A DNA stretch of 64,000 nucleotides from Heterodontus francisci. Lineage: Eukaryota. The stretch spans positions 20,098,529 to 20,162,528 of the forward strand of contig NC_090399.1 of NCBI RefSeq assembly GCF_036365525.1. Direction: 5' to 3'. A model generated the notes under the pieces. The model worked only from the letters and a program-made list of their open reading frames with translations. It made no database searches and had not been told where the DNA came from. The translations under genes and the position numbers were made by a program. Of the stretch, positions 6,223 to 57,309 are shown one piece after another; position 1 is the first letter of the stretch, and each line of letters begins with the position of its first letter.

Positions 6223-6384
6223 TCTCTGGGGATGGGGGAGTTCACGTTAATTGCTGGTTTATGAAGAGATGTAGTAACTTGTTTGTTTGAAAGCATCTAG
6301 CTAATGACACCGGTTCTGTGACCTCACTCTCTCACTGGACGATTGGCTCGTGTATAAATGAGGTTGTTTCAGTGCATTGCCTCG
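6223..6384 (+). promoter_or_regulatory. Core promoter of GPCR copy 1
   Basis: TATAAA at 6353-6358, 60 nt upstream of the ATG. Inverted CCAAT (ATTGG) at 6342-6346, TGACCT at 6319-6324, TAATGA at 6302-6307, TAATTG at 6248-6253 and EBF-like TCTCTGGGGA at 6223-6232. The stretch 6235-6384 is identical in all three units. Confidence 0.7.
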
Positions 6385-6412
6385 CATCTACCGCTCCTGG
6401 TTTTCGGAGAAA

Positions 6413-6476
6413 ATGGGACGACAGGCACTTCCGATAGAAATGTTGTATCCGATTCTCGCAGTTATTGGCATTCCTG
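6413..6476 (+). CDS. GPR139-like class A GPCR copy 1, coding exon 1 (MGRQALPIEMLYPILAVIGIP)
   Basis: ATG in good Kozak context (AAAATGG), 21 codons plus 1 nt, then donor G|GTAAGT. The phase-1 join to 8555 restores TM1 (..YPILAVIGIPANL..). Confidence 0.88.
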
Positions 6477-8554: not shown

Positions 8555-9453
8555 CAAACCTGCTGTCATTTCTGGTTCTTTTCCAAAGGAAATGCGGTCT
8601 TTCCAAAGGAATCACTCATTATATGATGGCCATGGCCGTGGGAGACCTCATGGTCCTTATCTTTAATGTTATTGTGAGCCAAATCATCAAGTATCATTTT
8701 CCAGATTCATTGCTGAACTACACTTCCACGTGTCGTTTTACTGTCTTCATGCAAGGGTTTAGCATTCAGCTCTCTATCTGGTTCACAATGTCGTTCACCT
8801 TTGACCGTTTTGTTGCAATTTGTTGCCAGAAATTGAAATCAAGATATTGCACCGAAAGGACAGCCACCATGGTTGTAACGGCCATGTGTGTGCTCAACAT
8901 TTTGATCAATATTCCCATGCCTTTCCGCTATGAGCCCGATTATATTCTCAACAATATACAGTGGGGCTGCCGCACCATCACAGGATATTTTACTTCACCC
9001 GCATGGAAGGTTCACCAATGGATTACCAATCTCTCAAGTACATTACTTCCAATTCCTTTGCTGCTGCTGTTGAACTCTCTCACCGTCAGGCACATCTTAT
9101 TAGCCAGTAGAGCTCGCAAAGCCCTGAAGAGCAACAACAATGGAAAAACCGGCAGTGATCCCGAGATGAAGAACAGAAGAACATCCATCATTCTACTCTT
9201 TGCTATCTCGGGCACTTTTATTGTGTTGTCGGCCCCTATTACCGTAATACACATCTGTGTCGGTGTCACACAGACACTCGATTTCCAAGGTTCAAACTCA
9301 CTTTATTTGGCAATTAGAATCACATTTCTGTTGATGTGCACCAGCTCCTGTACAAACACTTGTATTTATGCACTGACACAGAGGAGATTCAGAGCGGAGA
9401 TCAAAAATATGGTGAAATATCCGTATTATCTCATTGTTAAATTATTTAAATAA
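8555..9453 (+). CDS. GPR139-like class A GPCR copy 1, coding exon 2 (probable G-protein coupled receptor 139-like; 320 aa spliced)
   Basis: Acceptor tttttgcatttctcctag|CA. Rhodopsin-like 7TM pattern: MAVGDL (TM2), Cys at the top of TM3, FTFDRFVAIC, ECL2 Cys, TM5 Pro, NTCIY and helix 8 FRAEI. AATAAA at 9460-9465. Confidence 0.93.
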
Positions 9454-19856: not shown

Positions 19857-19865
19857 GAATTAGAA

Positions 19866-22496
19866 TTAGAACATTACAGCGCAGTACAGGCCCTTTGGCC
19901 CTCGATGTTGCGCCGACCTGTGAAACCATCTGACCGACACTATTCCATTTTCATCCATATGTCTATCCAATGACCACTTAAATGCCCTTAAAGTTGGCGA
20001 GTCTACTACTGTTGCAGGCAGGGCGTTCCACGCCCCTACTACTCTCTGAGTAAAGAAACTACCTCTGACATCTGTCCTATATCTATCACCCCTCAACTTA
20101 AAGCTATGTCCCCTCGTGTTTGCCATCACCATCCGAAGAAAAAGACTCTCACTATCCACCCTATATAACCCTCTGATTATCTTATATGTCTCTATTAAGT
20201 CACCTCTCCTCCTCCTTCTCTCCAATGAAAACAACCTCAAGTCCCTCAGCCTTTCCTTGTAAGACCTTCCCTCCATACCAGGCAACATCCTAGTAAATCT
20301 CCTCTGCACCCTTTCCATAGCTTCCACATCCTTCCTATAATGCGGTGACCAGAACTGCACGCAATACTCCAGGTGCGGCCTCACCAGAGTTTTGTACAGC
20401 TGCAGCATGACATCGTGGCTCCGAAACTCGATCCCCCTACTAATAAAAGCTAACACACCATATGCCTTCTTAACAGCCCTATTAACCTGGGTAGCAACCT
20501 TCAGGGATTTATGCACCTGGACACCAAGATCTCTCTGTTCATCTACACTACCAAGAATCTTCCCATTAGCCCAGTACTCTGCATTCCTGTTACTCCTTCC
20601 AAAGTGAATCACCACGCACTTTTCCGCATTAAACTCCATTTGCCATCTCTCAGCCCAGCTCTGCAGCCTATCTATGTCCCTCTGTACCCTACAACATCCT
20701 TCGGCACTATCCACAACTCCACCGACCTTAGTGTCATCCGCAAATTTACTAACCCACCCTTCTACACCCTCTTCCAGGTCATTTATAAAAATGACAAACA
20801 GCAGTGGCCCCAAAACAGATCCTTGCGGTACACCACTAGTAACTAAACTCCAGGATGAACATTTGCCATCAACCACCACCCTCTGTCTTCTTTCAGCTAG
20901 CCAATTTCTGATCCAAAGCTCTAAATCACCTTCAACCCCATACTTCTGTATTTTCTGCAATAGCCTACCGTGGGGAACCTTATCAAACGCCTTACTGAAA
21001 TCCATATACACCACATCCACTGCTTTACCCTCATCCACCTGCTTGGTCACCTTCTCGAAAAACTCAATAAGGTTTGTGAGGCACGACCTACCCATCACAA
21101 AACCGTGCTGACTATCGCTAATGAACTTATTCTTTTCAAGATGATTAAACATCCTGTCTCTTATAACCTTTTCCAACATTTTACCCACAACCGAAGTAAG
21201 GCTCACAGGTCTATAATTACCAGGGCTGTCTCTGCTCCCCTTCTTGAACAAGGGGACAACATTTGCTATCCTCCAGTCTTCCGGCACTATTCCTGTCGAC
21301 AATGACGACATAAAGATCAAGGACAAAGGCTCTGCAATCTCCTCCCTAGCTTCCCAGAGAATCCTAGGATAAATCCCATCTGGCCCAGGGGACCTATCTA
21401 TTTTCACACTTTCCAAAATTGATAACACCTCCTCCTTGTGAACCTCAATCCCATCTAGCCTAGTAGCCTGAATCTCAGTATTCTCCTCGACAACATTTTC
21501 TTTCTCTACTGTAAATACTGACGCAAAATATTCATTTAACACTTCCCCTAGCTCCTCTGATTCCACACACAACTTCCCACTACTATCCTTGATTGGCCCG
21601 AATCTAACTCTAGTCATTCTTTTATTCCTGATATACCTATAGAAAGCCTTAGGGTTTTCCCTGATCCTATCCGCCAATGACTTCTCGTGTCCTCTCCTTG
21701 CTCTTCTTAGCTCTCCCTTTAGATCCTTCCTGGCTAGCTTGTAACTCTCAAGCGCCCTAACTGAGCCTTCACGTCTCATCCTAACATAAGCCTTCTTCTT
21801 CCTCTTGACAAGCTCTTCAACTTCTTTAGTAAACCACGGCTCCCTCGCTCGACAACTTCCTCCCTGCCTCACAGGTATATACTTATCAAGGACACGCAGT
21901 AGCTGCTCTTTGAATAAGCTCCACATTTCGATTGTTCCCATCCCCTGCAGTTTCCTTCCCCATCCTACGCATCCTAAATCTTGCCTAATCGCATCATAAT
22001 TTCCTTTCCCCCAGCTATAATTTTTGCCCTGCGGAATATACCTATCCCTGCCCATCGCTAAGGTAAACCTAACCGAATTGTGATCACTATCACCAAAGTG
22101 CTCACCTACATCTAAATCTAACACCTGGCCGGGTTCATTACCCAGTACCAAATCCAATGTGGCATCGCCCCTGGTTGGCCTGTCTACATACTGTGTCAGA
22201 AAACCCTCCTGCACACACTGGACAAAAACTGACCCATCTAAAGTACTCGAACTATAGTATTTCCAGTCGATATTTGGAAAGTTAAAGTCCCCCATAACAA
22301 CTACCCTGTTACTCTCGCCCCTGTCGAGAATCATCTTCGCTATCCTTTCCTCTACATCTCTGGAAGTATTTGGAGGTCTATAAAAGACTCCCAACAGGGT
22401 GACCTCACCTCTCCTGTTTCTAACCTCGGCCCATACTACCTCAGACGAGTCCTCAAACGTCCTTTCTGTCGCTGTAATACTCTCCTTGATTAACAA
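19866..22496 (-). CDS. CR1 LINE ORF2 (APE endonuclease plus reverse transcriptase); N-terminus frameshifted at the G tract and native stop lost
   Basis: 876-aa ORF with the same APE and RT motifs as 3417-5987. A TAG>TCG change extends the ORF into the 3' UTR. Confidence 0.92.
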   Translation of the reverse strand: MLIKESITATERTFEDSSEVVWAEVRNRRGEVTLLGVFYRPPNTSRDVEERIAKMILDRGESNRVVVMGDFNFPNIDWKYYSSSTLDGSVFVQCVQEGFLTQYVDRPTRGDATLDLVLGNEPGQVLDLDVGEHFGDSDHNSVRFTLAMGRDRYIPQGKNYSWGKGNYDAIRQDLGCVGWGRKLQGMGTIEMWSLFKEQLLRVLDKYIPVRQGGSCRAREPWFTKEVEELVKRKKKAYVRMRREGSVRALESYKLARKDLKGELRRARRGHEKSLADRIRENPKAFYRYIRNKRMTRVRFGPIKDSSGKLCVESEELGEVLNEYFASVFTVEKENVVEENTEIQATRLDGIEVHKEEVLSILESVKIDRSPGPDGIYPRILWEAREEIAEPLSLIFMSSLSTGIVPEDWRIANVVPLFKKGSRDSPGNYRPVSLTSVVGKMLEKVIRDRMFNHLEKNKFISDSQHGFVMGRSCLTNLIEFFEKVTKQVDEGKAVDVVYMDFSKAFDKVPHGRLLQKIQKYGVEGDLELWIRNWLAERRQRVVVDGKCSSWSLVTSGVPQGSVLGPLLFVIFINDLEEGVEGWVSKFADDTKVGGVVDSAEGCCRVQRDIDRLQSWAERWQMEFNAEKCVVIHFGRSNRNAEYWANGKILGSVDEQRDLGVQVHKSLKVATQVNRAVKKAYGVLAFISRGIEFRSHDVMLQLYKTLVRPHLEYCVQFWSPHYRKDVEAMERVQRRFTRMLPGMEGRSYKERLRDLRLFSLERRRRRGDLIETYKIIRGLYRVDSESLFLRMVMANTRGHSFKLRGDRYRTDVRGSFFTQRVVGAWNALPATVVDSPTLRAFKWSLDRHMDENGIVSVRWFHRSAQHRGPKGLYCAVMF

Positions 22497-22824
22497 TGCA
22501 ACACCATCCCCCCCCCTCCCCCTCTTTTACCATCTTCTCTGTTGTTACTGAAACATCTAAATCCCGGAACCTGCAACATCCATTCCTGCCCCTGCTCTAC
22601 CCATGTCTCCGAAATGGCCACTACATCGAGATCCCAGGTACCAACCCATGCTGCAAGCTCACCCACCTTATTCCGGATGCTCCTGGCGTTGAAGTAGACA
22701 CACTTTAAACCAGGTTCTTGCTTGCCAGTGCCCTCTTGCGTCCTTGTAACCTTATCCCTGACCTCACTACTCTCAACATCCTGTACACTGGAACTACAAT
22801 TTAGGTTCCCATCCCCCTGCTGAA

Positions 22825-23746
22825 TTAGTTTAAACCCCCCCGAAGAGCACTAGCAAATCTCCTCCCCAGGATATTGGTACCCCTCTGGTTCAGGTGAAGA
22901 CCATCCTGTTTGTAGAGGTCCCACCTACCCCAGAAAGAGCCCCAGTTATCCAGGAAATCAAAACCCTCCCTCCTGCACCATCCCTGCAGCCACGTGTTCA
23001 ACTCCTCTCTCTCCCTATTCCTCGCTTCGCTATCACGTGGCACGGGCAACAACCCAGAGATAACAACTCTGTTTGTTCTTGCTCTAAGCTTCCACCCTAG
23101 CACCCTGAATTTCTGTCTTAAATCCCCATCTCTCTTCCTACCTATGTCGTTGGTGCCTATGTGGACCACGACTTGGGGCTGGTCCCCCTCCCCCTTAAGG
23201 ATCCCAAAAACACGATCCGAGACATCACGAACCCTGGCACCTGGGAGGCAACATACCAACCGTGAGTCTCTCTCGTTCCCACAGAACCTCCTATCTGTTC
23301 CCCGAACTATGGAGTCCCCAATGACTAATGCTCTGCTCCTCTTCCCCTTTCCCTTCTGAGCAACAGGGACAGACTCTGTGCCAGATACCTGTACCCCATT
23401 GCTTACCCCTGGTAAGTCGTCCCCCGAAACAGTATCCAAAACGGTATACCTGTTGTTGAGGGAAACAGCCACAGGGGATCCCTGCACTGCCTGCTGGTTC
23501 CCTCTCCTTCCCCTGACGGTAACCCATCTACCTACTTCTTTTACCTGAGGTGTGACTACCTCCCCATAACTCCTCTCAATAACCCCCTCCGCCTCCCGAA
23601 TGATCCGAAGTTGCTCCAGCTCCAGTTCCCTAACGCGGTTCTCGAGGAGCTGGAGTTGGGTGCACTTCCCGCAGATGCAGTCAGCAGGGACACTCTTGGC
23701 GACCCTTACCTCCCACATTCTGCAGGAGGAACATACAACTGCCTTA
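22825..23746 (-). CDS. CR1 LINE ORF1 (zinc finger, coiled coil, SGNH/GDSL esterase domain)
   Basis: CSSC..CGKC, LLENRVRELEL, GDSIVRG, PGA, HIGTND and DGLHLN motifs. Confidence 0.88.
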
Positions 23747-24659
23747 ACAGACTGGTGTACGTCAAGAATATCAATGTGATACCAAGAAACAACTGAAGAC
23801 ACTGGATGCTGCAAAGGCAATGGACCTTGACAACGTTCCGGCAATAGTACTGAAGACCAGTACCTGATATGAAATGTGACCCGTGGTAAGATGGAATTTC
23901 TTCTGGAAATCGGTTTTGCAGGATGAATTTCCTGGAATATTTCCAGAATGTGTTGTGACAAGGTCCCAGGCTCATAAGGTTAAACAAGATGAGATGGATT
24001 CAGATGTTTTCGAGGACAATTCTGATGTTTGGTTGGCTGAAATATTTTTCAGGGATTTGGATGAGGACATTGGTGTTAAAGGCTCCAAGGTTAACAATGG
24101 GGAATTGTTTAGCAGATCTCCCGTGATTTTGGGATACAACAGGCAGATCCTGATTTTAGGAGCTTGTCTCAGGCGACCTGTTTTGAGCCACAGACTGAAA
24201 AGTTTTATTAGTGTTATTACGTCAAGAAAGAAGAGGAAGTGGAGACCTCTCCGCTGATGAGGATTGGACTGTAATCCATCAAATGGTTGTCCCTCCTTGC
24301 TATCATAGTGTAATTTAGAGAATTGCGAATGAAATCCCATTCACAGGTCATTTGTGTTTTCCAAAAACTCAGGTTTGGGTAATGACATATTATTACTAGC
24401 AAAGCTGCATCAGGATGTGGTTCACTATTGTAAGACATGCCACACATGTCAAATGGTTGGGATCCACAGCCTATATCTTTTCCTTTGCCACCTATCTCAA
24501 TAAAAGCAGATTTCCTTTCATTATCAAAAGTCTTTTCTTTCCAATTTCTCTGAAAGTTTCCAAATTGAGGCCTGTGACAACTGCTTTGTGAATCAATTCA
24601 TAATCATGTGCTACTACTGCGGCTTCCTTTATTTTACAAACTTCATTTTTTAAAATTTG

Positions 24660-27326: not shown

Positions 27327-27354
27327 TATCAACCGCTCCTGGTTTTCGGAGAAA

Positions 27355-30395: not shown

Positions 30396-33300
30396 TTGTT
30401 GAATAAAGTAAGTGAAATCAAACTTCAATTAATTGCCTGGCATTTTCTTTGCAACTTTCACAATGTCTTTTAAAGTTCTAAGGGCAACACATCCCACAGT
30501 TTGGAAGAGTCCATTTGATTTATAAATTCCAACAAGTATTTGAACAAGTTGAGGAGGCAGAATCATCCCCTTCAGAATCTCTGGTTACGGTTGTTTATCC
30601 GGTTATTAATGTCCACGCACTTTGTAAGCCGAATTGGAGGATGATGTGACATAGCAGAGCGCCTTGACAGGTTCAAATAATAAAGATCTTTCAACACACT
30701 GACATCCGAATTTGGAGCAGGAGTAGGCCTGTCATTCCTTCAAGCCTGCTCCGCCATTTGATAAGATCATGGCAGATCTGGTTATGGCCTCAAATTTCCT
30801 GTCTACCTGATGTAACGCTGACTCCCTTATCAATCAGGATTCTATCTAAAACAGCACCTCAAGAGTCAGATCACCATGAAATACAATGGGATATTGTGTT
30901 TGATGGCAGGTGTTATGGAATATAAATATAGAGATTTAGTGGAGAATCTCTCCCAGACTTTTGTGAGACCAAACCCGCAGTACTTTGTGCTGTTTTGGAC
31001 TCAACACTGTTGGCCAATTTGGATGTAATAGTGAGGACACAGCGTAGTAAACTCACTAGCAAGATGTCGGACATGAATAAATCCAAATATGAAAAATGAG
31101 TTCGTTCTCAATCAGAAGAGAAGAGATTTCAGGCTGAATTAATAGAGATGGTTGCAGTAATGAAAGCCTGGAGCAGAATAGATAGATGCAACGATTGATG
31201 GGTCTATCAGCAGTGAACATAGATCTTGAGAGTAAATGAAAGAGATTTAGGACAGAGAACAGAAGAAACTTTGTGACACCTAGAATTGTGAAGCTTTGAC
31301 TTGGATTTTTGGTGTTATTGATTGAAGCAGAGACTGTGACAACGTTAACGGGTTTGATATGATGTTTAAAGACCAATAAATAAAGTAATATTGGAGCAGT
31401 GCGACCAGATATGATTAAAACTATTGCTTATGTAGATGACAAATACAGACGTGGGTTGATCTGCCCCAACGACCTGCTTTCGTGTTGCAATTTCTATGAA
31501 ATTCATTTTTTCGTGCGGTAATTGATTTGTTTTCTTCTGCTGGCAAGACTTCATGTTTGGCCAATTCCTTGCAGCCCTGAGGATGTGATGGCCAGCCTTC
31601 AATTTTGCCTGCTGCTCTCCTTCTGATGGTGCAGCAGCGATGATGCCAGGAAGGGAATCCCAGGATACAGATACAGCGACCATGAACAAATTGTGACATA
31701 TGTCTAAGCTAGAATGGTATGTGACTTACAAATGATGATGTTCCAATGACATTTTGTCCCTGTGTTTCTCGGTGGGAGAGGTTACAGGTGAGGAAGGTGC
31801 TGTCTAATTAAACTTGATGGTTTGCTGCAGTGCATCCGATAAACTGTATTTTCAGGAACCATTGTGTGTCAGCTGCAGAGGGAAGGACACTGAGCTCAGG
31901 GACATGGGCACTGATGAAGGGAACTGCTCTGTCCCGTATGAGATCGAGCTTCTTGAGTTGTATAGTTCCTGCACCCATCCTGTCGATTGGTCTATATTCC
32001 CTCACACACCTGACATGTGGCCTTTACTTGATGTTGAGGATTTGGAACGGGATCGGGGTGAAGGGAGAGGTGCGAGCGGATGTGTGCCACTCTGAGACGC
32101 TGTGGTACTGATAGTTAGCGGGTAAAACAATATCAAATTGATGCAGTACGTATTGCTCTTCTGAGATTTCAACTGAAGAAATGGGTTGCAGCAAAGTAGA
32201 GGAAGTTTCTTCAGTCTCCATTTAAGCTGTGCTCCAGCTGACCTCAGCGTGTCTCCACGCAAAACTGTGAAAATTCTTGGCAATGCTTACAAGCTCAATC
32301 AGGCTGATCATGTAAGACATTCTATTCTCTCACTAATAGTGAATCTTTTACAAAGGCAATGAATAAAACGGATCTGGTGGCTACCTTAACACGGTGCAGG
32401 GTTGGCACCCCAACGTTCTCCCGACGTCGGGTTCCCGACCCCCAGAAGGAAAATCCTTTTCACCAAAAGGAGGCACGGTTGACTTGGCAACAAGTCCACT
32501 GTCACACTGAGGCCCTGTCACTAACTGAAAAACGACAGGTGGGAAACCTTCCAGCGCTCTCGACAAGTCTTTTCTTTTCCCCTTGCAGAACCTGCGTTTC
32601 CAGTTTTTTTTTTTAACTTTCTGTCGTTTGGAAATCCCACAGACGATGTTCCAATCTTCATTCTCAATATGGATGGGATAACCAGCGGGATTCCTGCAGA
32701 AATAATTTGCCTATCCCTCTCCACGTTATGGCAGGAGATGGGGAGAACCCACCCACAACCACATCCTCTCCCACCCATTGGAAATTCCATCCCTCAAAAA
32801 TATTTCTTCTGGCAGAATATTTCGCAGCTGTGTCATATTGTTCTTGTATTTGACAGAGAGTTGGACCTTGTGATTGAGAGACTGCAGATATGTTTCAGGC
32901 CGTTGACCCAATATAAATGGCCTCCTTCATTTTGCAGCACATCTCATGACCTTGGGTTTCTACTTGCTTTTGGCTTGACCAAATGTTCTCGTTTCGCCCT
33001 CGTTCCTGCTCTCGAGCAGTGGCTTTTACTGAATTTTCTTTTCTTCACATAACTCAGATATGACATGATCACCCATTTTGCAGCATTATCCAAATTTAAA
33101 ATTGCACCGCCACCACCGCACAACTCCCCTCATCCCTCGCTCAGTTCCAATCCTAGCAGAAACCATTCTGTCCTTTTTCAGCGTGGTAGCATTCTTGCCT
33201 CCTCGTCAGAACGTCACCAGAGACTTAAATGCACAATCTAGGCTGCCGCTCCAGTGAGGGAGTGCTGCACTGTCGTAGGTGCTATCTTGTGGATGAGACA

Positions 33301-35469
33301 TTAAACCAAGGCCCTGCCTGCCCTCTCAGGTGGACGGAAAAGACGCTGTGTCACTATTTTAAGGACTTCACCCCTTCCTCGGCTCTTCGGCTGCTGAAAC
33401 CCTCATCCAGGACTTTGTTACCTCTAGACTTGACTATTCCAATGTTCTTACGACCAGTCTTCCACATTCTTCCCTCATAAATTTGAGGGCATCCGAAACC
33501 TTGCTCCCCACGTCTGAACTCACACCAAGTCCTGTTCACCAACACCCCTGTGTTTGCTTACTCATTTTGGCTATCAATTTAGTAATAAATTGATTTTAAA
33601 ATTCCCATCCTTGTTTTCAAATGCCACCATGGTCTCACCCCTCCCTATCTCTGTAATCTCCTACAGCCCCACAACCCTCTGGGATATCTACACTGCCCGA
33701 CCTGAACCCGATGGGACCTGACATGTGTCTGGTCACTCTTCTGGGCCCGTTTCTCGGGATTATGTCGGGTCTGAGTCAGACACACACAGTATTAATTGGA
33801 CTTGAAAGGTTGTTTAAAAGGATTAAGATTGGAGCCATGAAGTCAGTGATTGTTTGGTCACAAGGTAAACAGAAACCCATGGAGTTGTGCCCATTCAGGT
33901 TGTGCCACGCTGTACCAGTATCCGCATTGCTTAAAATAAAGACCTCAATTGCCCGAAGGCTCAGAAAATATCATTATACATTAACTAGACTCCTGCTTTA
34001 CAGGTCGAAATACTTTCTGTAAGTTTATCCAGTGAGCAGCTGAGATGCCGAGACCAGGAAGGTCCTGAGTGATTAATTATTATTACAGTACTGTACTGTA
34101 TGTGTGGTAGAATGGAGTCCTGACAGTGATCATTTTATATTTTTTTATATAAATACTGTATATTTTATAATAATTAATCTCTCAGGACCTTCCTGGTCTC
34201 TGCATCTCAGCTGCTCACTGGATAAACTTGCAGCAAGTATTTCAACTGAAAAAGTGAAAAACAGATTCGGAGTTGGAAGGTAGGTAAAGTGAACATTCCG
34301 TTGGTCGGGTTGGGTCGGACTCGGGTCGGGTTGGGCATGGGAAAAAATGGAAGGACTCAGACCAGGTTGGGCTCGGGTATGATGTGGTTCTGTTGTTTTT
34401 TTTTTCAGACCCGAGCAGGCCTTTCATCTACGCTTCTCTGATTCTGGCCTCGTGAGCTCCAACATTGGTGGCTGTGACTTCAGGTGCCTAGCCCCAAGCT
34501 CTGGAATTCCCTCACTCAACCTCTCCACTTCTCTCTCCTCCTTAAAGAAATTCATTAAAAACCTACCACTCTGACCAAGCTTTAGGTCATCAGCTATAAT
34601 ATCATCTTATGTCACTTGGTCAAAGTTTGCTTATAATGCTCTTGTGAAGTGCCTTGTGATGTTATATTACATTAAAGGTGCAATATAAATGCAAGTTGTT
34701 TTTGTTGTTGTTGAAGAAGACTGGGGGTGTTCTCCCCAACTTCACTAAAACAGATGATCTAGTCATTTATCTCATTGCTGTTTGTGGGAGTTTGCTGCTG
34801 TGTGTAAACTGGATGCTGCATTGTCTACATTTCAAGAGTGACTGCATTTCAAAAAGGAGTCGAATTGGCTGTGATGCACTTTTGGATGTCCTGGGGTGGT
34901 GAAAGCTGATTTATAAATGGAAATCTTTCAGGTCTTGCTTTACTGAAGACCAGCCTGGTCTGAAATGCTCAGGAAGATGACTGTGCACACAAACGAACAA
35001 TTCAAAGGTCAGGTGCATCAGAAGGGAAAAACTCAGGTAGCACAGACACTGAGAGGTATATGAAGCAGGAAAGCAAATTTGAATCAAAACAAGTGAAAGT
35101 GTATTAGCACACTTCCAAATAGAAATAATCAGAATAAGTATAGACAATCAAAACTGTTAGGAATCAATTCACAGAAGTCATCCAAATACTTGGTTCAATT
35201 ACAGGCATCACACATGCACACTCACACACACTCACACATAGAGTAACACACACAGGTTGGAGTGTGTCACAAAGAGTAACACACGGGGCGGAGTGAGTCT
35301 CTCACACACACAGATTAACACAAAGGCTGGAGTGTGTCAAACACACACAGAGTAACACAAAGGCTGGAGTGTGTCACACAACATGACACGCAGGTTGGAA
35401 TTTTCAAACACACTTAGCAACATACAGGAAGGGTCAGGCACACAAACAGAGTAACACATAGGCTGGGGT

Positions 35470-38400
35470 CAGTCTTTAAACATTAATCTTTATTGCATAA
35501 TAACTATATACACTCCACACTAGCCTGTGTGTCTCCTTCAAAAGCCTTGCTGTAACTGTTCTTGAGTCTCTCCCACATGATTTCTTAACTCATCCTGGTG
35601 GGCAGTAATCTTTACGTTCTCTCAGGATTAACCCTTTGATACCCTTATACTACATTTTCCCCACGTTTTTAGCCTAAGATATATTTAGACACATTCATTT
35701 TTTCATTTACACGCTATCCTATCTCCTCCCAAGTCTCTGACTTCATAGATTCAACCTATCAGGAGGCTTCACAACTCTCCCTAATCTTGTTGGTCGTCAG
35801 ATGTGAAAGATTGATAATCTTTCTCTGATCCCTTGTTTCTTGACTTGGACGGTCTTCGTTGAGTTTTGTAGCATTTGGCACTTTTTGATTTTTCGGTTCA
35901 TCATCTGAGTCGTCTAACTGTGTAACTAACGTCTTTGATGTAAAGGAATAAGATTCCTTCTATTTCTCCATATAGGATCTTCTTGAGTCCATAGTAGAGA
36001 AGATCGCTGTTGATTCTCATCTTTCTGGAGAATTACCCTGTCTCTCTTTTGGTCTCGTACCCATACTTTTTGCCCTTCTGACAACTTTGGTAGGTTTCAG
36101 GTACGGAACCTTCTGTTATGATAATGGGTCTGCTTGTTTCAATATGACTTTTCTATGTCCAGTATTTTCTGATAATCCTTGCCTTGCAATCCTGGAAGTA
36201 ACTTCTTGCATAGAATTGAAAATTGCTTTTGAAGTTTTCATTAAGAGTTGTGATGGCGCTAATCTGCACAATAATGGAATAGTTCTGTATGTCAGTCGTG
36301 CTAATTGGAAATCTCTTTTTTTACCATCAACATAATTTTAATGGTTCTGACTGCTCGCTCTGCTTCTCCATTTGATTCTGGATACTTAGGAGAGCTTGTT
36401 AGGTGAACAAATCCACATTATTCTGCAAAGTGCGTGAAGTAATCGTTTGCAAATTGCAGTCCATTATCAGATAATATGTGATCAGGTATACCAGGTGTTG
36501 TGAAACTTCTTGTAAAACTCTGATGACTGCTTCAGTTGTTGTTGTGTTGTCCATCTTAACTTCGATCCATCCTGAGAAGTAATCAACTATAATTAGCTAG
36601 GCTCTTCCTTCAAAGAAGAACAAATCCACGGTCTAGTTGAGAATTGGGTCGAAATTACAGGTTCTCTTTGATCTTGTCTTCCCCAGCTTCTTCCCCAGTT
36701 CTCTGTCCGTGTAGCACTCCTGTGAAACTTACTGCATTTCTGTTTATCTCTCTGCTAATCTTTGAGCAGCACGGCGGGCTGTGAAATATTGCATTGTGTG
36801 GGCTCTGTAACGAAATCTAGACTCTCTGCAAAACTCAGGTCAGGGTATGGGGCTCTCCCTCTGTCCTCGCTCCTGGATTATTCTCGTTTATCTACTTCAA
36901 CTTTCTCAATAATATGAAGATCAATAAAAGTTCTTCTACTTAAGTCTGCGAACTCCTGATTTCTTAGGACATACAGTGTTTCTAATATTTACTTTCCATT
37001 ATATTGAAGCGTTGCTTGTAACTTCCCCTTTACTTCAAGTACAAGACCTCCTGGGCCATGCAACTGAGTTTCTATTGCTTGCTCCGGTGTCAAGTTTGAA
37101 ATGTGTCTGCTGACCAAAATGCTCGTTTCAGATCATTGATCTCACCCAGAAAATATTTCGATTGGTCTGCTGCAGGAGGTTCTTTAACTTCATTTATCTC
37201 TCTATTCTTAACTACTTTTCCTTTAGAGGTTGATGTGGTCACGATTTTATTTCAGCATAATCTTACTGAGATGCCCTATTTTTCTGTAATAAAGGCATTC
37301 TGCTCTATTGGCGGGACACTGTCCATGCCTGTGGGACGTTTTTGCAACACAATGTTTAAGGACATCTTTTGCTCTGCCCCCTAGTGTACCTGTTTTCCTG
37401 GTGCCTCTTGTTCAGCCGTCTGGTGAAGGAACGGAACTGTTACAGGAGGATTCCTGTACCGGGGTCTTTCCTCACCTCGTATGATTGGTCTGTTATTGCT
37501 GCACTAATTGAAGTCGGGAACAAAAGCTTTCACAACGTGTTCAAATTTTGTTGATTTTATCAATACGCTGCTATTATATCATCAGCTACAGCACCAATTA
37601 AATACAATTATTTATTAATTTGCTCTGCTTCAGACCTGCTGTCCAATTTCAATACAATTCTATATCTGAGAAATATTTTCCTCTATAGTACCCAGTTTTG
37701 AGTCTGATTGGATCCCTTGTGACTTTTGAAACTCTCTGGAAGTCCCAATTTTTGATCCATTTTTAAAAATTTACAGACTTTTTAGCGTGTTTGCCTTTAA
37801 TAAACTCTTTTTCTCACACTAGCTTGCTTTGATGGAGTGTATCAGGTGCTTGAGAGAGTTCCTGATGTTTTAAATAGGCTTTCTAGGGGTTTACCCTTTG
37901 CTTCAGCAGCTCACTTATATCTTTATTTATTCTGAGATACAGCACTGAAACAGGCCCTTTGGCCCACCGAGTCTGTTCCAATCAACAACCACCCATTGAT
38001 ACTAACTCTACACTGCCCCCAGGTTTTCTACCACATCCCCACCATTCTCCTACCACCTACCTACACTCGGGGCAATTTACAATGGCCAATTTACCTATCA
38101 ACCTGCAAGTCTTTTGGAGGTGGGAGGAAATCGGAACACCCGGCGGAAACCCACGCAGACACAGGGAGAACTTGTAAACTCTGCACAGGCAGTACTCAGA
38201 ATCGAACCCGGGTCGCTGGAGCTGTGAGGCTGCAGTGCTAACCACGGCGCCACTGTGCCACTGACAGCTGACACTGCTGTCTATTGGAATTAACAGAGCT
38301 GTTCCGTGGACAGTTTCAGGGTTTTCCCCTTTTCTTTTTAAGACCACGAGATACTTCAAGCTTGACAGCTTTAATTATTTTTTCAGGCTTGGCTGCATTA

Positions 38401-39077
38401 ATGGAGATTCTGCTGTATTCGGGGTTTCCCTGCCCTTTTTTTCTCTTCAGTATGGGACTTTTCCCGTACATTTTTTTCAGTTCGTGCACTTTTCAGGGTT
38501 CTCTCCACTCTCCACCCTTGCATTCAGCCTGAGTGAGGGATGGGTTGACCCCATTGCTTTTTTCTTTCAATCTCACACTGAGACTTTGGAAAAAATAATT
38601 TTTTAAAACTCTTCAAAGGCTTTTTTTTAAACCAGGATTTCTTAGGCGTCAGCACAATAATTCAGCCGATTGCTTGTTTGCAGCCATGCTTCCATTCTAT
38701 GGAGCTTCTCTCAGCCTTCAAAGATCTGTTGTTTCTTTTTATCTTTTCAGATACTTATTTTAAATTCTCTCTTCTGGCTGAAGGATGCTAGTTACTTCAA
38801 ACTTTTTCTTCTGAGTGTAGAATCCCTCCACTGTTCACCATATTATATGTTTGGTTCTTCATGCTGCCACCGTCAGAGAGGTTCTTAGACTGTAGTGTTT
38901 AAACATTAATCTTTATTGCATTGTAAGGATATACACTTCACACCAGCCTGTGTGTCTCCTTCAATAACCACGCTGTAACTGTTCCCAAACCTCTCCCACA
39001 TAATCCCTTACATCATCATGATGGGCCGCAATCTTTACGTTCTCTCAAGATTAACCCTTTGATACATTTAGATGACA
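35470..39077 (-). mobile_element. Decayed Gypsy LTR element, unit 2 copy (about 87 bp longer near 37620-37707)
   Basis: Colinear with 14546-18053, with LTR ends at 35654 and 39077. Confidence 0.85.
37921..38259 (-). mobile_element. HE1-like V-SINE, unit 2 copy
   Basis: Matches 16900-17237. Confidence 0.85.
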
Positions 39078-39437
39078 AAGCACACAGGCTGAAGTGTGTC
39101 ACATACACACAGAGTAACACACAGGCTGGAATGAGTCACAAATGCAAAGTAACACCACAGGCTGGAGTCAGTCTCTCTCTCACTCACAGAGTAACACACA
39201 GGCTGGGGTTTGTCACATACACAGAGTAACACACAGGCTGGAGTTTGTCACATACACAGAGTAACACACAGGCTGGAGTATGTCACATACACAGAGTAAC
39301 ACACAGGCTGGGGTATGTCACATACACAGAGGAACACACAGGCTGGAATGAGTCACAAATGCAAAGTAACACACAGGCTGGAGTCAGTCTCACTCACACA
39401 CACACACAGAGAAACACACAGGCTGGAGTCAGTCTCC

Positions 39438-39477
<40 letters not shown>

Positions 39478-39507
39478 CACACATGCTAGAGTGGGTCACA
39501 CACACAG
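39078..39507 (+). repeat. CA-rich minisatellite, shorter unit 2 tract (second short tract at ~40073-40240)
   Basis: Same ~35-bp unit with fewer copies. Confidence 0.9.
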
Positions 39508-42500
39508 GGAATGTATCCATCTTGTGGATTTTCTGACGGTAGAATTGGATTTGGGCGGCACTTCCGCTCCCTCGTTTTTTGCCTGTTGCCACCCGATTAC
39601 AAGTGGAAATCAAAGTTTCAGCAGCGGGCATGGGAGATACATGCGATCATGTGGTGTGGAATACTTTTCATGGTGGAGCCTGCTGTCATTCAGGGAAGCA
39701 TTATGCATGGCATTGTTATAAATAATCCTTCAGTGCAATCAGGGAGGTTCATCAACGAGGCCAGTCTTTTTCAGAGACTTCTGGGCTTTTCCCCTTAAAT
39801 CTTACCCACCCTCACCCATCTTTACACCTGTCGCAAACAAAGGCTATGGACCCTGGCAACATTACGGCAAGAGCACTGAGGACCTGTGCTCCAGAACTTG
39901 CCGCGCCCCCAGACAAGCAGATTTGTGATGGTGCGGGGGTGCGTGGAGGGGTGGGGTGGGTGTGGGTGGGGGGGGAATAGTAACCGCAGTGAGACAGGGA
40001 CACCTGCAGATGGAGATGCTGAGCCATTGCTGATGGGAAGGTTTGGTGTTACTGAGAGTTTGACAGTTTCCAAACACAGAGTAACACGCTGGCTGGAGTG
40101 TGTCACAGGCACAGAGTAACACACTGGTTGGAGTGTGTCACACGCACACACAGAATAACACACTGGCTGAAGTGTGTCACACACACAGAATAACACACTG
40201 GCTGGAGTGTGTACACACACAGAGTAACACACAGGCTGGTGTACGTCAAGAATATCAATGTGCTACCAAGAAACAACTGAAGACACTGGATGCTGCAAAG
40301 GCAATGGGCCGTGACAATGTTCCGGCAATAGTACTGAAGACCAGTACCTGATATGAAATGTGACCCGTGGTAAGATGGAATTTCTTCTGGAAATCGGTTT
40401 TGCAGCATGCATTTCCTGGAATATTTCCAGAATGTGTTGTGACAAGGTCCCAGGCTCATAAGGTTAAACAAGATGAGATGGATTCAGATGTTTTCGAGGA
40501 CAATTCCGATGTTTGGTTGGCTGAAATATTTTTCAGGGATTTGGATGAGGACATTGGTGTTAAAGGCTCCAAGGTTAACAATGGGGAATTGTTTAGCAGA
40601 TCTCCCGTGATTTTGGGACACAACAGGCAGATCCTGATTTTAGGAGCTTGTCTCAGGCGACCTGTTTTGAGCCACAGACTGAAAAGTTTTATTAGTGTTA
40701 TTACGTCAAGAAAGATGAGGAAGTGGAGACCTCTCCGCTGATGAGGATTGGGCTGTAATCCATCAAATGGTTGTCCCTCCTTGCTATCATAGTGCAATTT
40801 AGAGAATTGCCAATGAAATCCCAGTCACAGGTCATTTGTGTTTTTCAAAAACTCAGGTTAGGGTAATGACATATTGTTACTAGCAAAGCTGCATCAGGAT
40901 GTGGTTCACTATTGTAAGACATGCCACACATGTCAAATGGTTGGGATCCACAGCCTATATCTTTACCTTTGCCACCTATCTCAATAAAAGCAGATTTCCT
41001 TTCATTATCAAAAGTCTTTTCTTTCCAATTTCTCTGAAAGTTTCCAAATTGAGGCCTGTGACAACTGCTTTGTGAATCAATTCATAATCATGTGCTACTA
41101 CTGCGGCTTCCTTTATTTTACAAACTTCATTTTTTAAAATTTGTTTGTGGGATGTGGGCGTTGCTGGCTAGGCCAACATTTATTGCCCATCCCGAAATGC
41201 CTTTGAACTGAGTGGCTTGCGAGGCCATTTCAAAATGCTTTTTTGTGTCTGGAGTCAGATGGAGGTCAGACCACGTAAGGATGGCAGATTTCCTTCCGAA
41301 AAGGACATTAGTTAAACAGATGGGTTTTTATAACAATCGACAATGGTTTCATGGTCACAATTAGACTAGCTTTTTAATTCCAGAATTGTGAAGAAAATTC
41401 AAACTTCACCTTCTCCTATGGTGGGATTCGATCCCATCTCACCAGATTTTTAGTTTGTGCTCTGGAATACTAGTTTAATAACATTAACACTCTGCCGCGA
41501 ACTCCCCCATGTTGTTTCATTTGGAAACTTATTCCTGAACGAATACTGTGTTTCAAATCTTCCATCAGAATTACTTCCCTCAGGCTCTCAAAGTCTTGTG
41601 CAATCTTTATTGACCTACACCACCGATCAAATTCAATCGTGTCTTTCAAAAGGAAATAGGATAAATACTTGAAGGGAAATGAAATGGGAGTAGAGGGGGA
41701 AAGGACCGGATGTGGGACTAGATAAATTGCTCTTGCAGAGAGTAGGCACGGGCATGATGGGCCGAATCACCTCCTTCACGAGGAGTGAGAGCGCCCATTA
41801 AGGCCCTATCACTCACTAATCGAGGAAGAGGTCTTGCAAATAAAGATGAGTGTTGAGGCTGGAGGACACATCCTGCAGGTTTCTTCTCTAATTTACAGTG
41901 TGCCCGTTCTGAACGAAATCTCACACTGACACACAATGCATAGGAAAATTCAGCTGCTTTCAGCTGACGCTCATCAGTCTTTGCTTGACCTCAACCCTAA
42001 ATACTAATTCTTGACCTTCTGTTCTATTTCAGGGCAATGGAATGTGCCCAGAACCTGAGGTGACGGGAAATGGGTTGCACTTGTGATCATGCGGAAGCAC
42101 CCACGGTTACTTCCGCAAGCATCAGCTCAGAGACTTGCATTGCCAGTACTTTAGTTGGTATGCAAGATGGTTATGGACTGTTCGACTCAAGGAGCAGCAG
42201 AGAATGGAAAATGGGTAGCGGGATAGGATGGTTAGTAAGGGGCTTTCTGCAGGAAGAGCTAACATCTTAAAGAGCACAGCTGAAGATTTCGAGGACACAG
42301 TCAACATTCAAAAACTGCTTCCTATTTACCAGGGCTTTTCCAGTGCTTTGGGCAGCCTGCCTGCGATTCGACACACAATGACAGAGAGCATGGAAAAATC
42401 CAGCTCCAGATGTTGGAGAGGGGGTGAGGGGGTGGGGGGGGGGGTGGGGGGTGTGTGTGTTTGTGAGGGGTGGGGTGGGCGTGTGTATGGATCATTCAGA

Positions 42501-43652
42501 ACGGTTTTAACACCTTAATGTCGAGAATGGAGTGAGACAATTGAAGTCAACGGAACTGAGTATTGGAAGGGGCGCATAAAGGGCAGTCGATTCCATGCCA
42601 CCCACATTGCTTTCATGCCAAAGGCAAACTATTATCCTGTCGATATATAGACTGCTTTAGGGAAATAGCAGATCCACCTAGTATTCCTGCTGATTTATAT
42701 TATTGCTTTTTCGTAATGCATCAAAGACAGCCTGCGCTACAGTTAAACTGCTTCTTACAATACAGACATCAACAACGACCTGCGGGGCACAAACCAGGCA
42801 GAACCACTTTTGCTGCCTTTTCTTCCAGATGCCGATATTCAGTGCTATTGAAGTCAAGTAGATTGAATATCGGCAGGGGCGTGTAACGAGCCACCAATGC
42901 AATGCCACCTGCTTTGTCAATATCCACTCCCGTGTACTTGTATGGCATGTTTAATGCAGAAAACCATCACAAAGCACTTCAGAGAGGCCGAATCAAATAA
43001 TAATAGATATTGAACCAAGAGTAATTCTGAGAATAGGATTGGTCAAAAAGGTGGGTGTTAGGGACTGATTGAAGCAGTTGAGGGATAGTAAGGTGGAGCG
43101 GTTTAGAGCAGCAATTCCACAGAGCGGGTGTCTGTGGCTCCAGGTTTGACAGCAAGAGGGGATCGAATGGGGAGTCTTTGCTGAAGAGGTCGTAATTGAA
43201 GAGGGAGGACAGTTGGGATGTTAGGCATGGAGCAGGTCACAGGGATAGAAAGAGAGAATAGGCTGAAGTTCAGGGAGGGTGGCTAATCGGAACCTGGACA
43301 GCAATAATCGGCGTAGCTTTGACGTTAGACCATTGTGTAAAACCTGTGGTACGGACTGCACCACTCGGGAAGAAGATCTCCTGATTTTATGTTCCAACAA
43401 AGTCGAAATTACCCCACTTAGCTCTGCTGGTGTCAAAGGCATGAACCAGGGTTTGAACGTCTGATGCATTGACGAAAAGCTGGAGTTCGACAACATTAAG
43501 ACGGTGAAACTTGTCGGTCTATATCCACTTCTCGGTTCAACCGAAACCCAATGTCCCATGAACGCTGAGCTGCTGCAATCAAAAAGCAGCAACGGAGCAA
43601 GAGTCTCAGAGGCGAGGATTTTTTCAGTCTGAGATTGCACACTGTATTTAAT

Positions 43653-43814
43653 TCTCTGGGGATTGGGGAGTTCACGTTAATTGCTGGTTTATGAAGAGAT
43701 GTAGTAACTTGTTTGTTTGAAAGCATCTAGCTAATGACACCGGTTCTGTGACCTCACTCTCTCACTGGACGATTGGCTCGTGTATAAATGAGGTTGTTTC
43801 AGTGCATTGCCTCG
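43653..43814 (+). promoter_or_regulatory. Core promoter of GPCR copy 3
   Basis: TATAAA at 43783-43788, ATTGG at 43772-43776, EBF-like site at 43653-43662. Confidence 0.7.
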
Positions 43815-43842
43815 GATCAACCGCTCCTAGTTTTTGGAGAAA

Positions 43843-43906
43843 ATGGGACGACAGGCACTTCCAATAGAAATGTTGTATCCGATTCTCGCAGTTATTGGCA
43901 TTCCTG
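43843..43906 (+). CDS. GPR139-like GPCR copy 3, coding exon 1
   Basis: ATG...CCT G|GTAAGT, with one synonymous change (CCG>CCA). Confidence 0.88.
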
Positions 43907-45942: not shown

Positions 45943-46841
45943 CGAACCTGCTGTCAGTTTTGGTTCTTTTCCAAAGGAAATGCGGTCTTTCCAAAGGAAT
46001 CACTCGTTATATGATGGCCATGGCAGTGGGAGACCTCATGGTCCTTATCTTTAATGTTATTGTGAACGAAATCATCAAGTATCATTTTCCAGATTCATTG
46101 CTGAACTACACTTCCGCGTGTCGTTTTAGTGCCCTCATGCAAGGGTTTAGCATTCAGCTCTCTATCTGGTTCACACTGTCGTTCACCTTTGACCGTTTTG
46201 TCGCAATTTGTTGCCAGAAATTGAAATCAAGATATTGCACCGAAAGGACAGCCACCACGGTTATAACGACCATGTGTGTGCTCAACATTTTGAACAATAT
46301 CCCCATGCCTTTCCGCTATGAACCCGATTATACTCTCAACAATATACAGTGGGGCTGCCGCACCGTCACAGGATATTTTACTTCACCCGCATGGAAGATT
46401 CACCAATGGATTACCATCCTCTCAAATGCATTACTTCCAATTCCTTTGCTGCTGCTGTTGAACTCTCTCACCGTCAGGCACATTTTATTAGCCAGTAGAG
46501 CTCGCAAAGCCCTGAAGAGCAACAACAATGGAAAAACCGGCAGTGATCCCGAGATGAAGAACAGAAGAACATCCATCATTCTACTCTTTGCTATCTCGGG
46601 CACTTTTATTGTGTTGTCGGCGCCTATTACCGTAATACACATCTGTGTCGGTGTCACACAGACAGTCGATTTCCAAGGTTCAAACTCACTTTATTTGGCA
46701 ATTAGAATCACATTTCTGTTGATGTGCACCAGCTCCTGTACAAACACTTGTATTTATGCACTGACACAGAGGAGATTCAGAGCAGAGATCAAAAATATGG
46801 TGAAATATCCGTATTATCTCATTGTTAAATTATTTAAATAA
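45943..46841 (+). CDS. GPR139-like class A GPCR copy 3, coding exon 2 (320 aa spliced)
   Basis: Acceptor attctcccag|CG. Intact 899-nt exon with the same 7TM motifs. Confidence 0.93.
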
Positions 46842-49800
46842 TTGTTGAATAAAGTAAGTGAAATCAAACTTCAATTAATTGCCTGGCATTTTCTTTGCAA
46901 CTTTCACAATGTCTTTTAAAGTTCGAAGGGCAACACATCTCACAGTTTGGAAGAGTCCATTTGATGTATAAATTCCACTAAGAATTTGAACAAGTTGAGG
47001 AGGCAGAATCATCCCCTTCAGAATCTCTGGTTGCGGTTGTTTATCCGGTTATTAATGTCCACGCACTTTGAATGCCGAATTGGAGGATGATGTGACATAG
47101 CAGAGCACCTTGACAGGTTCAAATAATAAAGATCTTTCAACACACTGACATCCGAATTTGGAGCAGGAGTAGGCCTGTCATTCCTTCGAGCCTGCTCCGC
47201 CATTTGATAAGATCATGGCAGATCTGGTTATGGCCTCAAATTTCCTGTCTACCTGATGTAATTTTGACTCCCTTATCAATCAGGATTCTATCTAAAACAG
47301 CACTTCAAGAGTCAGATCACCATGAAATACAATGGGATATTGTGTTTGATGGCAGGTGTTATGGAATATAAATATAGAGATTTAGTGGTGAATCTCTCCC
47401 AGACTTTTGTGAGACCAAACCCGCAGTATTTTGTGCTGTTTTGGACTCAACACTGTTGGCCAATTTGGATGTAATAGTGAGGACACAGCGTAGTAAACTC
47501 ACTAGCAAGATGTCGGACATGAATAAATCCAAATATGAAAAATGAGTTCGTTCTCAATCAGAAGAGAAGAGACTTCAGGCTGAATTAATAGAGATGGTTG
47601 CAGTAATGAAAGCCTGGAGCAGAATAGATAGATGCAACGATTGATGGGTCTATCAGCAGTGAACATAGATCTTGAGAGTAAATGAAAGAGATTTAGGACA
47701 GAGAACAGAAGAAACTTTGTGACACCTAGAATTGTGAAGCTGTGACTTGGATTTTTGGAGTTATTGATTGAAGCAGAGACTGAGACCACTTTAACGGGTT
47801 TGATATGATGTTTCAAGACCAATGAATAAAGTAATATTGGAGCAGTGCGACCAGATATGATTAAAACTATTGCTTATGTAGATGACAAATACAGATGTGG
47901 GTTGATCTGCCCCAACGACCTGCTTTCGTGTTGCAATTTCTATGAAAATCATTTTTTCGTGTGGTAATTGATTTGTTTTCTTCTGCTGGCAAGACTTCAT
48001 GTTTGGCCAATTCCTTGCAGCCCTGAGGATGTGATGGCCAGCCTTCAATTTTACCTGCTGCTCCCCTTCTGATGGTGCAGCAGCGATGATGCCAGGAAGG
48101 GAATCCCAGGATACAGATACAGCGACCATGAACAAATTGTGACATATGTCTAAGCTAGAATGGTATGTGACTTACAAATGATGATGTTCCAATGATATTT
48201 TGTCCCTGTGCTTCTCGGTGGGAGAGGTTACAGGTGAGGAAGGTGCTGTCGAATTAAACTTGATGGTTTGCTGCATTGCATCCGATAAACTGTATTTTCA
48301 GGAACCATTGTGTGTCAGCTGCAGAGGGAAGGACACTGAGCTCAGGGACATGGGCACTGATGAAGGGAACTGCTCTGTCCCGTATGAGATCGAGCTTCTT
48401 GAGTTGTATAGTTCCTGCACCCATCCTGTCGATTGGTCTATATTCCCTCACACACCTGACTTGTGGCCTTTACTTGATGTTGAGGATTTGGAACGGGATC
48501 GGGGTGAAGGGAGAGGTGCGAGCGGATGTGTGCCACTCTGAGACGCTGTGGTACTGATAGTTAGCGGGTAAAACAATATCAAATTGATGCAGTATGTATT
48601 GCTCTTCTGAGATTTCAACTGATGAAATGTGTTGCAGCAAAGTAGTGGAAGTTTCTTCAGTCTCCATTTAAGCTGTGCTCCAGCTGACCTTAGCGTGTCT
48701 CCACGCAAAACTGTGAAAATTCTTGGCAATGCTTACAAGCTCAATCAGGCTGATCATGTAAGATATTCTATTCTCTCATTAATAGTGAATCTTTTACAAA
48801 GGCAATGAATAAACCGGATCTGGTGGCTACCTCAACACGGTGCAGGGTTGGTACCCCAACGTTCTCCCGACGTCTGGTTCCCGACCCCCAGAAGGAAAAT
48901 CCTTTTCACCAAAAGGAGGCACGGTTGTCTTGGCAACAAGTCCACTGTCACACTGAGGCCCTGTCACTAACTGAAAAACGACAGGTGGGAACCCTTCCAG
49001 CGCTCTCGACAAGTCTTTTCTTTTCCCCTTGCAGAACCTGCGTTTCCAGTTTTTTTTTTTAACTTTCTGTCGTTTGGAAATCCCACAGACGATGTTCTAA
49101 TCTTCATTCTCAATATGGATGGGATAACCAGCGGGATTCCTGCAGAAATAATTTCCCTATCCCTCTCCACGTTATGGCAGGAGATGGGGAGAACCCACCC
49201 ACAACCACATCCTCTCCCACCCATTGGAAATTCCATCCCTCAAAAATATTTCTTCTGGCAGAATATTTCGCAGCTGTGTCATATTGTTCTTGTATTTGAC
49301 AGAGAGTTGGACCTTGTGATTGAGAAACTGCAGGTATGTTTCAGGCCGTTGACCCAATATAAATGGCCTCCTTCATTTTGCAGCACATCTCATGACTTTG
49401 GGTTTCTACTTGCTTTTGGCTTGACCAAATGTTCTCGTTTCGCCCTCGTTCCTGCTCTCGAGCAGTGGCTTTTACTGAATTTTCTTTTCTTCACACAACT
49501 CAGATTTGTCGTGATCACCCATTTTGCAGCATTATCCAAATTTAAAATTGCACCGCCACCGCCGCACAACTCCCCTCATCCCTCGCTCAGTTCCAATCCT
49601 AGAAGAAACCATTCTGTCCTTTTTCAGCGTGGTAGCATTCTTGCCTCCTCGTCAGAACGTCACCAGAGACTTAAACGCACAATCTAGGCTGCCGCTCCAG
49701 TGAGGGAGTGCTGCACTGTCGTAGGTGCTATCTTGTGGATGAGACATTAAACCAAGGCCCTGCCTGCCCTCTCAGGTGGACGGAAAAGACGCTGTGTCAC

Positions 49801-57277: not shown

Positions 57278-57309
<32 letters not shown>

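Follow-up and report, generated by a model that had tools for sequence, protein, structure and literature searches.

Three receptor genes of the shark Heterodontus francisci are members of a family with over 5,000 seven-helix exons, a candidate chemosensory repertoire

A window of 64,000 nucleotides, the whole stretch analysed here, was taken from the 6.0-Gb genome of the shark Heterodontus francisci (G000:C29:20,098,529-20,162,528; feature positions below are relative to this window). It carries three closely similar G-protein-coupled receptor (GPCR) genes in tandem. The locus raises the question of whether these genes are a local peculiarity or members of a wider repertoire and, if the latter, what that repertoire might sense. 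To the first part the answer is plain: the window genes belong to a receptor family of more than 5,000 seven-helix exons in this one shark genome. The second part is approached through the relatives of the family, the selection on its predicted ligand pocket, its promoters and the first exons of one subclade.

The window genes and the extent of their family

The receptor features of the window, with TM denoting a transmembrane helix, are as follows.

6280..6360, plus strand: gene 1 promoter, with forkhead-type site, TAAT-core site, short GGA-containing element and TATA box, by sequence match
6413..6476, plus strand: gene 1 coding exon 1, encoding a short N-terminus and the first half of TM1, with a phase-1 donor
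8555..9453, plus strand: gene 1 coding exon 2, encoding the remainder of TM1 to helix 8, with the stop codon
9460-9465, plus strand: gene 1 polyA hexamer
27222..27302, plus strand: gene 2 promoter, by sequence match
27355..27418, plus strand: gene 2 coding exon 1
29497..30395, plus strand: gene 2 coding exon 2
43710..43790, plus strand: gene 3 promoter, by sequence match
43843..43906, plus strand: gene 3 coding exon 1
45943..46841, plus strand: gene 3 coding exon 2
27007..43494, plus strand: basic tandem unit of ~16.5 kb, units being 95-97% identical

All three genes lie on the plus strand and consist of two coding exons that together encode a stop-free protein of 320 amino acids, with a canonical GT-AG, phase-1 intron inside TM1 (2078, 2078 and 2036 bp). 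Each protein has the seven helices, helix 8 and DRY-type motif of a class A GPCR and matches Pfam 7tm_1 above cut-off (E ~1e-18), confirming the three intact genes of a preliminary description of this DNA. The copies differ pairwise at 16-21 amino acids, with a ratio of nonsynonymous to synonymous substitution (dN/dS) of 0.52-0.77 and an intron divergence of 3.4-4.1%. In all three, a putative TATA box precedes the ATG by ~60 bp, and the stop codon is followed after 7 bp by a polyA hexamer. The splice sites and polyA signals are intact, as had been claimed; the promoters are recognised by sequence match only. First and second exons stand one-to-one in the window (three of each), with no surplus first exons. 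A retrocopy origin of the receptor genes was ruled out, since intron and promoter are retained. In the predicted structure of a 92%-identical relative (predicted local distance difference test score, 78.8), seven long helices and a hairpin in extracellular loop 2 (ECL2) were seen; its best Foldseek matches were peptide class A receptors, with GPR139 only at rank 21 and not separable from them.

The array extends past both window edges, as had been supposed. Sixteen copies at least 91% identical occupy 350 kb (C29:19.93-20.28 Mb), 14 on the plus and 2 on the minus strand; all 16 are open, each is distinct in DNA, and mosaic variants among them are evidence of gene conversion. The earlier figure of one gene per ~16.5-kb unit holds for the basic unit but not for the distances between genes: these measure 20.9 and 16.5 kb inside the window and, over a 13-copy run, 16.4-27.3 kb, because insertions of long interspersed nuclear elements (LINEs) lengthen some units.

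Beyond this array, a degenerate motif at the end of TM3 gave 5,180 genome matches (reversed-pattern control, 0) and an independent TM7 motif gave 5,524 (control, 1). For exon 1, a motif covering the exon end and the donor gave 9,829 (control, 1), nearly twice the second-exon counts. In a protein search, 132 of 12,639 first-look candidates were scored, and all 132, on many contigs, had E <1e-77. Forty TM3-motif sites were sampled, non-randomly, from the first 100 listed and spread over contigs C3-C17; all 40 scored with the family profile and 31 contained an open full exon 2, from which we estimate ~4,000-4,300 open second exons genome-wide (binomial range, ~3,200-4,900). The TM3 motif detects 72 of 120 database relatives and 15 of 19 other loci (20 examined, one unparsed); motifs thus overlook members, and the motif counts are floors in that respect. 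The lineage-expanded, GPR139/142-related family with birth-and-death arrays that had been proposed from the window therefore exists, with at least 5,180-5,524 exons, on a scale far beyond what the window could reveal. Its matches span tens of megabases on contigs C21, C28, C29 and C34, which suggests that whole arms of these chromosomes are dominated by the receptor family. The expectation of few canonical odorant receptors (ORs) in the same genome was also borne out, with 2 OR-family matches among 138 scored candidates.

Database searches with two queries returned relatives in 1,480 and 2,437 clusters at 90% identity. Among the 120 listed per query, named proteins were all from sharks or rays, mostly auto-named 'probable GPR139'; 15 or more named species of shark, ray and chimaera have members, one chimaera protein (P0144) included. 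The database protein nearest to the window genes is 92% identical and bears the source label Heterodontus francisci. The expansion of the family is old and common to sharks and rays, with one chimaera member, so that the term 'recently expanded' suits just the local array.

The family formed a clade in a first tree (Shimodaira-Hasegawa-like approximate likelihood-ratio test [SH-aLRT], 87 with 49 rows), with an orphan receptor of amphibians and sturgeon as its sister (SH-aLRT, 100). A second tree, which includes one wrongly picked row (L120, a much longer unrelated frame with a branch of 8.1), gave support of 93/92 with 10 rows for the family and 100/100 for the same sister. In neither tree, the second including that wrong row, were GPR139/142 and the family grouped against the invertebrate rows. 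The sister orphan shares cysteines in intracellular loop 2 and a motif in intracellular loop 3 with the family (29% identity; E 4e-37), but it appears to be single-copy, with one 90%-identity cluster per species listed (salamanders, frogs, a caecilian and sturgeon).

A relationship to GPR139/142 is supported by profile, GPR139 being the closest named kin and the best solved-structure match (E 2.6e-21; next, 2.5e-14), and by the phase-1 intron at the same position in TM1 of the shark's own GPR139. Asn at 5.58 and the lack of Pro at 7.50 are likewise common to both. On the other hand, GPR139 lacks the TM3-ECL2 cysteine pair found in most family members, and the GPR139 ortholog (C24:51.02 Mb) and a GPR142-like gene (C26:62.13 Mb) are single loci, in contrast to thousands of family copies. 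These single loci and the amphibian/sturgeon sister indicate that the family is kin of GPR139 and does not consist of GPR139 copies. The label 'GPR139/142-related' accordingly stands as a statement of kinship, although the immediate sister is another orphan. Orthology of the window genes to GPR139 or GPR142 was ruled out: the true orthologs lie elsewhere, a window-type receptor is just 23% identical to shark GPR139 over 196 amino acids, and its position in the trees is separate.

Papers are cited here by PMC number or DOI. GPR210A/B subtypes are described in coelacanth, gar and fishes in a survey that includes no shark (PMC6504862); their identifiers could not be mapped to the coelacanth-type and anchovy-type proteins compared here. 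FMRFamide/Srw-type receptors are neighbours of the family in feature space and its nearest invertebrate look-alikes, and show a similarly clustered expansion. That group includes the nematode srw chemoreceptors (PMC3963977) and has reached ~450 genes in a snail (PMC11589774); the shark expansion differs in being independent, vertebrate and ~10 times larger.

Several smaller observations concern the relatives. Two further single-copy GPR139-related orphans, L074 (C25:37.86 Mb) and L075 (C3:166.5 Mb), are orthologous to coelacanth/silverside and anchovy proteins. L017 (C36:53.68 Mb) is a lone distant relative of the window subclade, 53% identical, with a match that begins only at TM2. One subfamily (L058, L059, L061-L063, L098, L099 and L029; C9:109-110 Mb) has lost both TM3-ECL2 bridge cysteines, converging on the GPR139 state.

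Predicted pocket and promoter layout

Codon models were fitted with our own code on IQ-TREE topologies for three subfamilies (16, 24 and 22 sequences). Thirty-nine predicted pocket positions, 14% of codons, were fixed before testing; we take their generic helix numbering to be correct, with TM4 uncertain. Model M2a was preferred over M1a in all three subfamilies (likelihood-ratio statistics of 26, 50 and 41). At the inner helices omega, the dN/dS of these models, was 0.47, 0.39 and 0.28, with purifying selection in all three subfamilies (p <=0.009), while the pocket had values of 1.30, 1.11 and 0.94. Twelve of the 22 sites with a posterior above 0.9 were predicted pocket positions (14% expected; binomial p 7e-6), and these include 3.29, 3.32, 3.33, 3.36, 5.39, 5.42, 6.51, 7.35 and 7.42.

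As to promoters, a first exon was located no more than 7 kb away at 12 of 40 loci in one set and at 11 of 20 in another. A forkhead-type site lay 64-76 bp upstream of the TATA box in 20 of 24 promoters, one further promoter being too short to score, against a background of ~0.006 per 30-bp window; several of the 24 are close relatives, and the subfamilies covered are ~45-50% identical in protein. Between the forkhead-type site and the TATA box, 15 promoters chosen for diversity contained a TAAT-core site (14 of 15) and a short GGA-containing element (13 of 15). The transcription-factor names given to these sites are presumed from resemblance, and the TAAT-core and GGA-containing pair is reminiscent of the sites for homeodomain and O/E factors in the promoters of odorant receptors. 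By these motifs, distant subfamilies have one promoter layout in common.

Surplus first exons in the ectodomain subclade

One large subclade departs from the one-to-one arrangement of the window genes. In 770 kb of contig C21 that contain no N (C21:1,185,001-1,955,000; L140-L216), blastn detected 50 first-exon copies, all on the plus strand, and tblastn with eight diverse queries detected exactly one second exon, open and at the downstream end; a positive control backed the exon search. The first exons code for an ectodomain with N-glycan repeats and a Tyr/Asp-rich stretch that is hypervariable, together with half of TM1. A donor was called in 40 of the 50, with a forkhead-type site at 34 of these 40; 27 are open from ATG to donor over at least 40 amino acids and all different, and 23 are broken or donor-less. 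Database proteins that match a C21 exon exactly carry the source label Heterodontus francisci.

In 26 open first exons, omega was 0.44 (p 7e-5) over the TM1-side 20 codons and 0.96 over the ectodomain, values that are biased downwards by the picking of open exons. Across 49 of the 50 array exons, broken ones included, variation was 0.20 at third codon positions versus 0.125 and 0.121 at first and second positions, and donor positions +1 to +5 varied in 9 of 245 cases, positions +6 to +12 in 60 of 343. Of the C21 first-exon groups, 30 of 35 point to a second exon on the same strand, an orientation that would equally follow from local duplication. Out-of-frame ATGs precede the in-frame starts in the ectodomain repeat of the array exons and may tune translation.

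Genome-wide, the ectodomain-type first exon gave 5,428 matches versus 1,553 for its second-exon type, each motif missing copies. A second cluster (L220-L239), by motifs alone, contains seven first exons but a single second exon within 200 kb, and comparable first-exon runs were seen at C21:40.96-41.33 Mb and C7:138.57-138.76 Mb. The ectodomain type is also present in catshark, sevengill and sawshark proteins. An atlas search with the ectodomain returned just TM1-like fragments.

Evidence on splicing comes from annotation and from three presumed-RNA runs. RefSeq model P0325 (C21:1,852,107 to 1,941,080) joins a first exon 89 kb upstream to the second exon and skips two nearer ones; no other first exon is modelled for that second exon. 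The RefSeq clusters looked up contained no isoform sets with alternative first exons, and an RNA search with window gene 2 listed no RNA match. Contigs of the three runs (80% likeness), whose tissue is unspecified and which may derive from DNA, included paralog-like contigs over the coding part of the C21 second exon but none over its final 430 bases; several extend past the acceptor into the intron, and none of those listed showed a spliced join to a first exon. One contig, at a depth of ~3,300 in X1 and of 970 in X3, is 88% alike to the second exon over only 137 bases (L215:6614-6750) and then continues into unrelated sequence; it is possibly an abundant chimeric or non-coding transcript.

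The C21 arrangement therefore reads, at the level of sequence, as tandem first exons with predicted promoters and donors placed before one constant exon, a layout like that of protocadherins and UGT1. The likeness is confined to the ectodomain subclade, the window genes being without this layout. Two differences from the known systems are that a seven-helix receptor forms the constant part and that such a layout recurs at several C21 and C7 clusters.

Candidate functions and remaining features of the window

The explanation that we favour, with moderate confidence, is that the family grew by tandem duplication, diversified in its predicted pocket and serves chemosensation, its ligands being peptides from outside or cues derived from amino acids. 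Its traits resemble those of the OR, TAAR, V1R and V2R families: compact genes in tandem clusters on many chromosomes, birth and death with pseudogenes, pocket-biased diversification (12 of 22 sites pooled, weak in the window array) and a common promoter layout. There is no kinship with these four families, the window proteins matching 7tm_1 only and not the 7tm_4 domain of ORs. The ECL2 hairpin and peptide-receptor fold of the predicted structure, together with the ligands of its kin, point by analogy to peptide-like or amino-acid-derived ligands; GPR139 kin bind aromatic amino acids and neuropeptides (PMC12208981). The catshark nose combines a large sensory surface with few known receptors (PMC10116579). 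The scarcity of canonical ORs in this genome and the chemoreceptors among the FMRFamide/Srw-type look-alikes also speak for a chemosensory role.

In such a repertoire, the common promoter layout would confine expression of the family to a single kind of cell (sensory neurons or solitary chemosensory cells being likely), and each cell would choose one or a few promoters. Ligand specificity would be set by pocket residues on TM3, 5, 6 and 7, and the invariant intracellular motifs would couple every member to one G protein. In the first-exon-array subclade, promoter choice would splice a differing Tyr/Asp-rich glycosylated ectodomain onto one seven-helix exon, and this swapping would further multiply the repertoire.

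Several points weigh against a chemosensory repertoire of this size and kind. Pocket omega was not significantly above 1 in any of the three sets, just 2 of 6 selected sites of the window's own array lie in the pocket, and a tree-free count gave pocket enrichment in one of four subfamilies (Fisher p 0.77, 0.36, 0.004 and 0.07). Gene conversion lies outside the codon models and can inflate site-model tests, and the promoter motifs were defined after the sequences had been viewed. As to numbers, 14 of 132 and 27 of 118 listed matches are on contigs numbered above 51, and haplotype duplicates may inflate the counts. In a catshark brain-plus-olfactory library, no GPCR was among the top 50 specific genes (PMC11979771); this could follow from sparse expression, which would dilute each gene.

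Immune receptors, moreover, would be expected to show pocket-biased selection just as much. The main rival is therefore a role in innate immunity or in the sensing of microbes by the host, on leukocytes or barrier epithelia. Such a role, in the manner of formyl-peptide, chemokine or Mas-related receptors, would also accommodate fast turnover, and variable Tyr/Asp-rich glycosylated ectodomains would then dock diverse peptide or protein ligands. The array-type ectodomains, with their N-glycan repeats, recall chemokine-receptor N-termini, and the solved-structure matches of the family profile after GPR139 include CCR1 and CCR5. Cartilaginous fish are described as being without the MAS1 receptor group (PMC8455134), which counts in favour of such a role. 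We nevertheless consider it unlikely: chemokine-receptor matches were 7 orders of magnitude weaker than GPR139, our trees, which contain no chemokine receptors, place the family with neuropeptide-type orphans, and a strict pattern found no recombination signal sequences in the 770-kb C21 cluster. To our knowledge, thousands of copies also exceed the known immune GPCR families.

It appears improbable that the family is a recognition code for cell identity or reproduction, for instance among gametes, mates or neurons recognising self, operated by protocadherin-like promoter choice. The variable-first-exon/constant-exon layout fits the protocadherin/UGT1 design (PMC1885805), and the sex peptide receptor is among the invertebrate kin of GPR139 (PMC12208981); however, the window genes and many subfamilies are one-to-one, and the 770-kb cluster has one strict CTCF-type match and so, by that pattern, lacks the per-promoter CTCF sites of protocadherins. 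We give equally little credence to a largely non-adaptive origin by segmental duplication in a large, LINE-rich genome, with part assembly duplication and the surplus first exons as unspliced orphans, for although the 6-Gb genome with its LINE-rich tandem units, the scaling of tandem duplicates with genome size in batoids (10.1101/2025.06.08.657570), the broken or donor-less exons (9 of 40 second, 23 of 50 first), the near-identical copies on short contigs and the same-strand first exons all agree with it, it is opposed by purifying selection at inner helices beside a diversified pocket, conserved promoter spacing, third-position variation and donor constraint in the array exons, members in at least 15 species and 16 of 16 local copies distinct in DNA.

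A chemosensory repertoire could be stated more boldly. We raise it tentatively, as something that may well not hold, that next to OR, TAAR, V1R and V2R a fifth, unrelated family of vertebrate chemoreceptors exists in cartilaginous fish, and that this genome contains the largest vertebrate GPCR repertoire, with ~4,000+ intact receptors plus clusters where dozens of alternative promoters would, as in protocadherins, attach variable ectodomains to a common seven-helix exon, allowing >10,000 possible receptors chosen cell by cell. For comparison, the estimate of at least 4,000 open exons in the shark family stands against 1,948 ORs in the elephant (PMC11979771).

No description of this expansion was found in full-text literature on GPR139/142/210 or on GPCRs in cartilaginous fish, a search that covered few subscription papers; supplements of the catshark paper and of the preprints may mention these receptors. 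Automatic annotations already include the genes, and what is new is therefore how many there are, what they are, how they are selected and the arrays of first exons. Cartilaginous fish have been stated to be relatively poor in GPCRs (PMC8455134), and sharks have large olfactory organs with just tens of known chemoreceptors (PMC8455134, PMC10116579). Thousands of pocket-diversified receptors reverse the GPCR-poor picture, whichever tissue they serve, and the RNA-seq and in situ methods already available for catshark make the puzzle of shark chemoreception testable. Should the arrays of first exons prove to be spliced, GPCRs would gain a mechanism of diversity for which protocadherins and UGT1 have been the known examples. 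Through the sister gene of amphibians, the ligand and cell type of the ancestor could be approached in Xenopus.

The rest of the window had been described as transposon debris. This does not hold for all of it, because several LINE frames are still open: three CR1-type ORF2 (open reading frame 2) frames of 885-888 amino acids and two ORF1 frames of 384 amino acids. The elements concerned are as follows.

2790..5987, plus strand: CR1-type LINE insertion with an open 885-aa ORF2 (open stretch listed as 3330-5987), outside the receptor gene and lengthening its tandem unit
19866..23979, minus strand: CR1-type LINE with long open ORF1 (SGNH esterase) and ORF2 frames
58498-62617, minus strand: second copy of the CR1-type LINE with SGNH-esterase ORF1

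The CR1-type LINEs of the window are 93-99% alike and are found in some tandem units and missing from others. A CA-rich minisatellite with 35/70/144-bp periodicity (14285-14551, 18051-19857, 39075-39507 and 55437-58489) varies in length between units.

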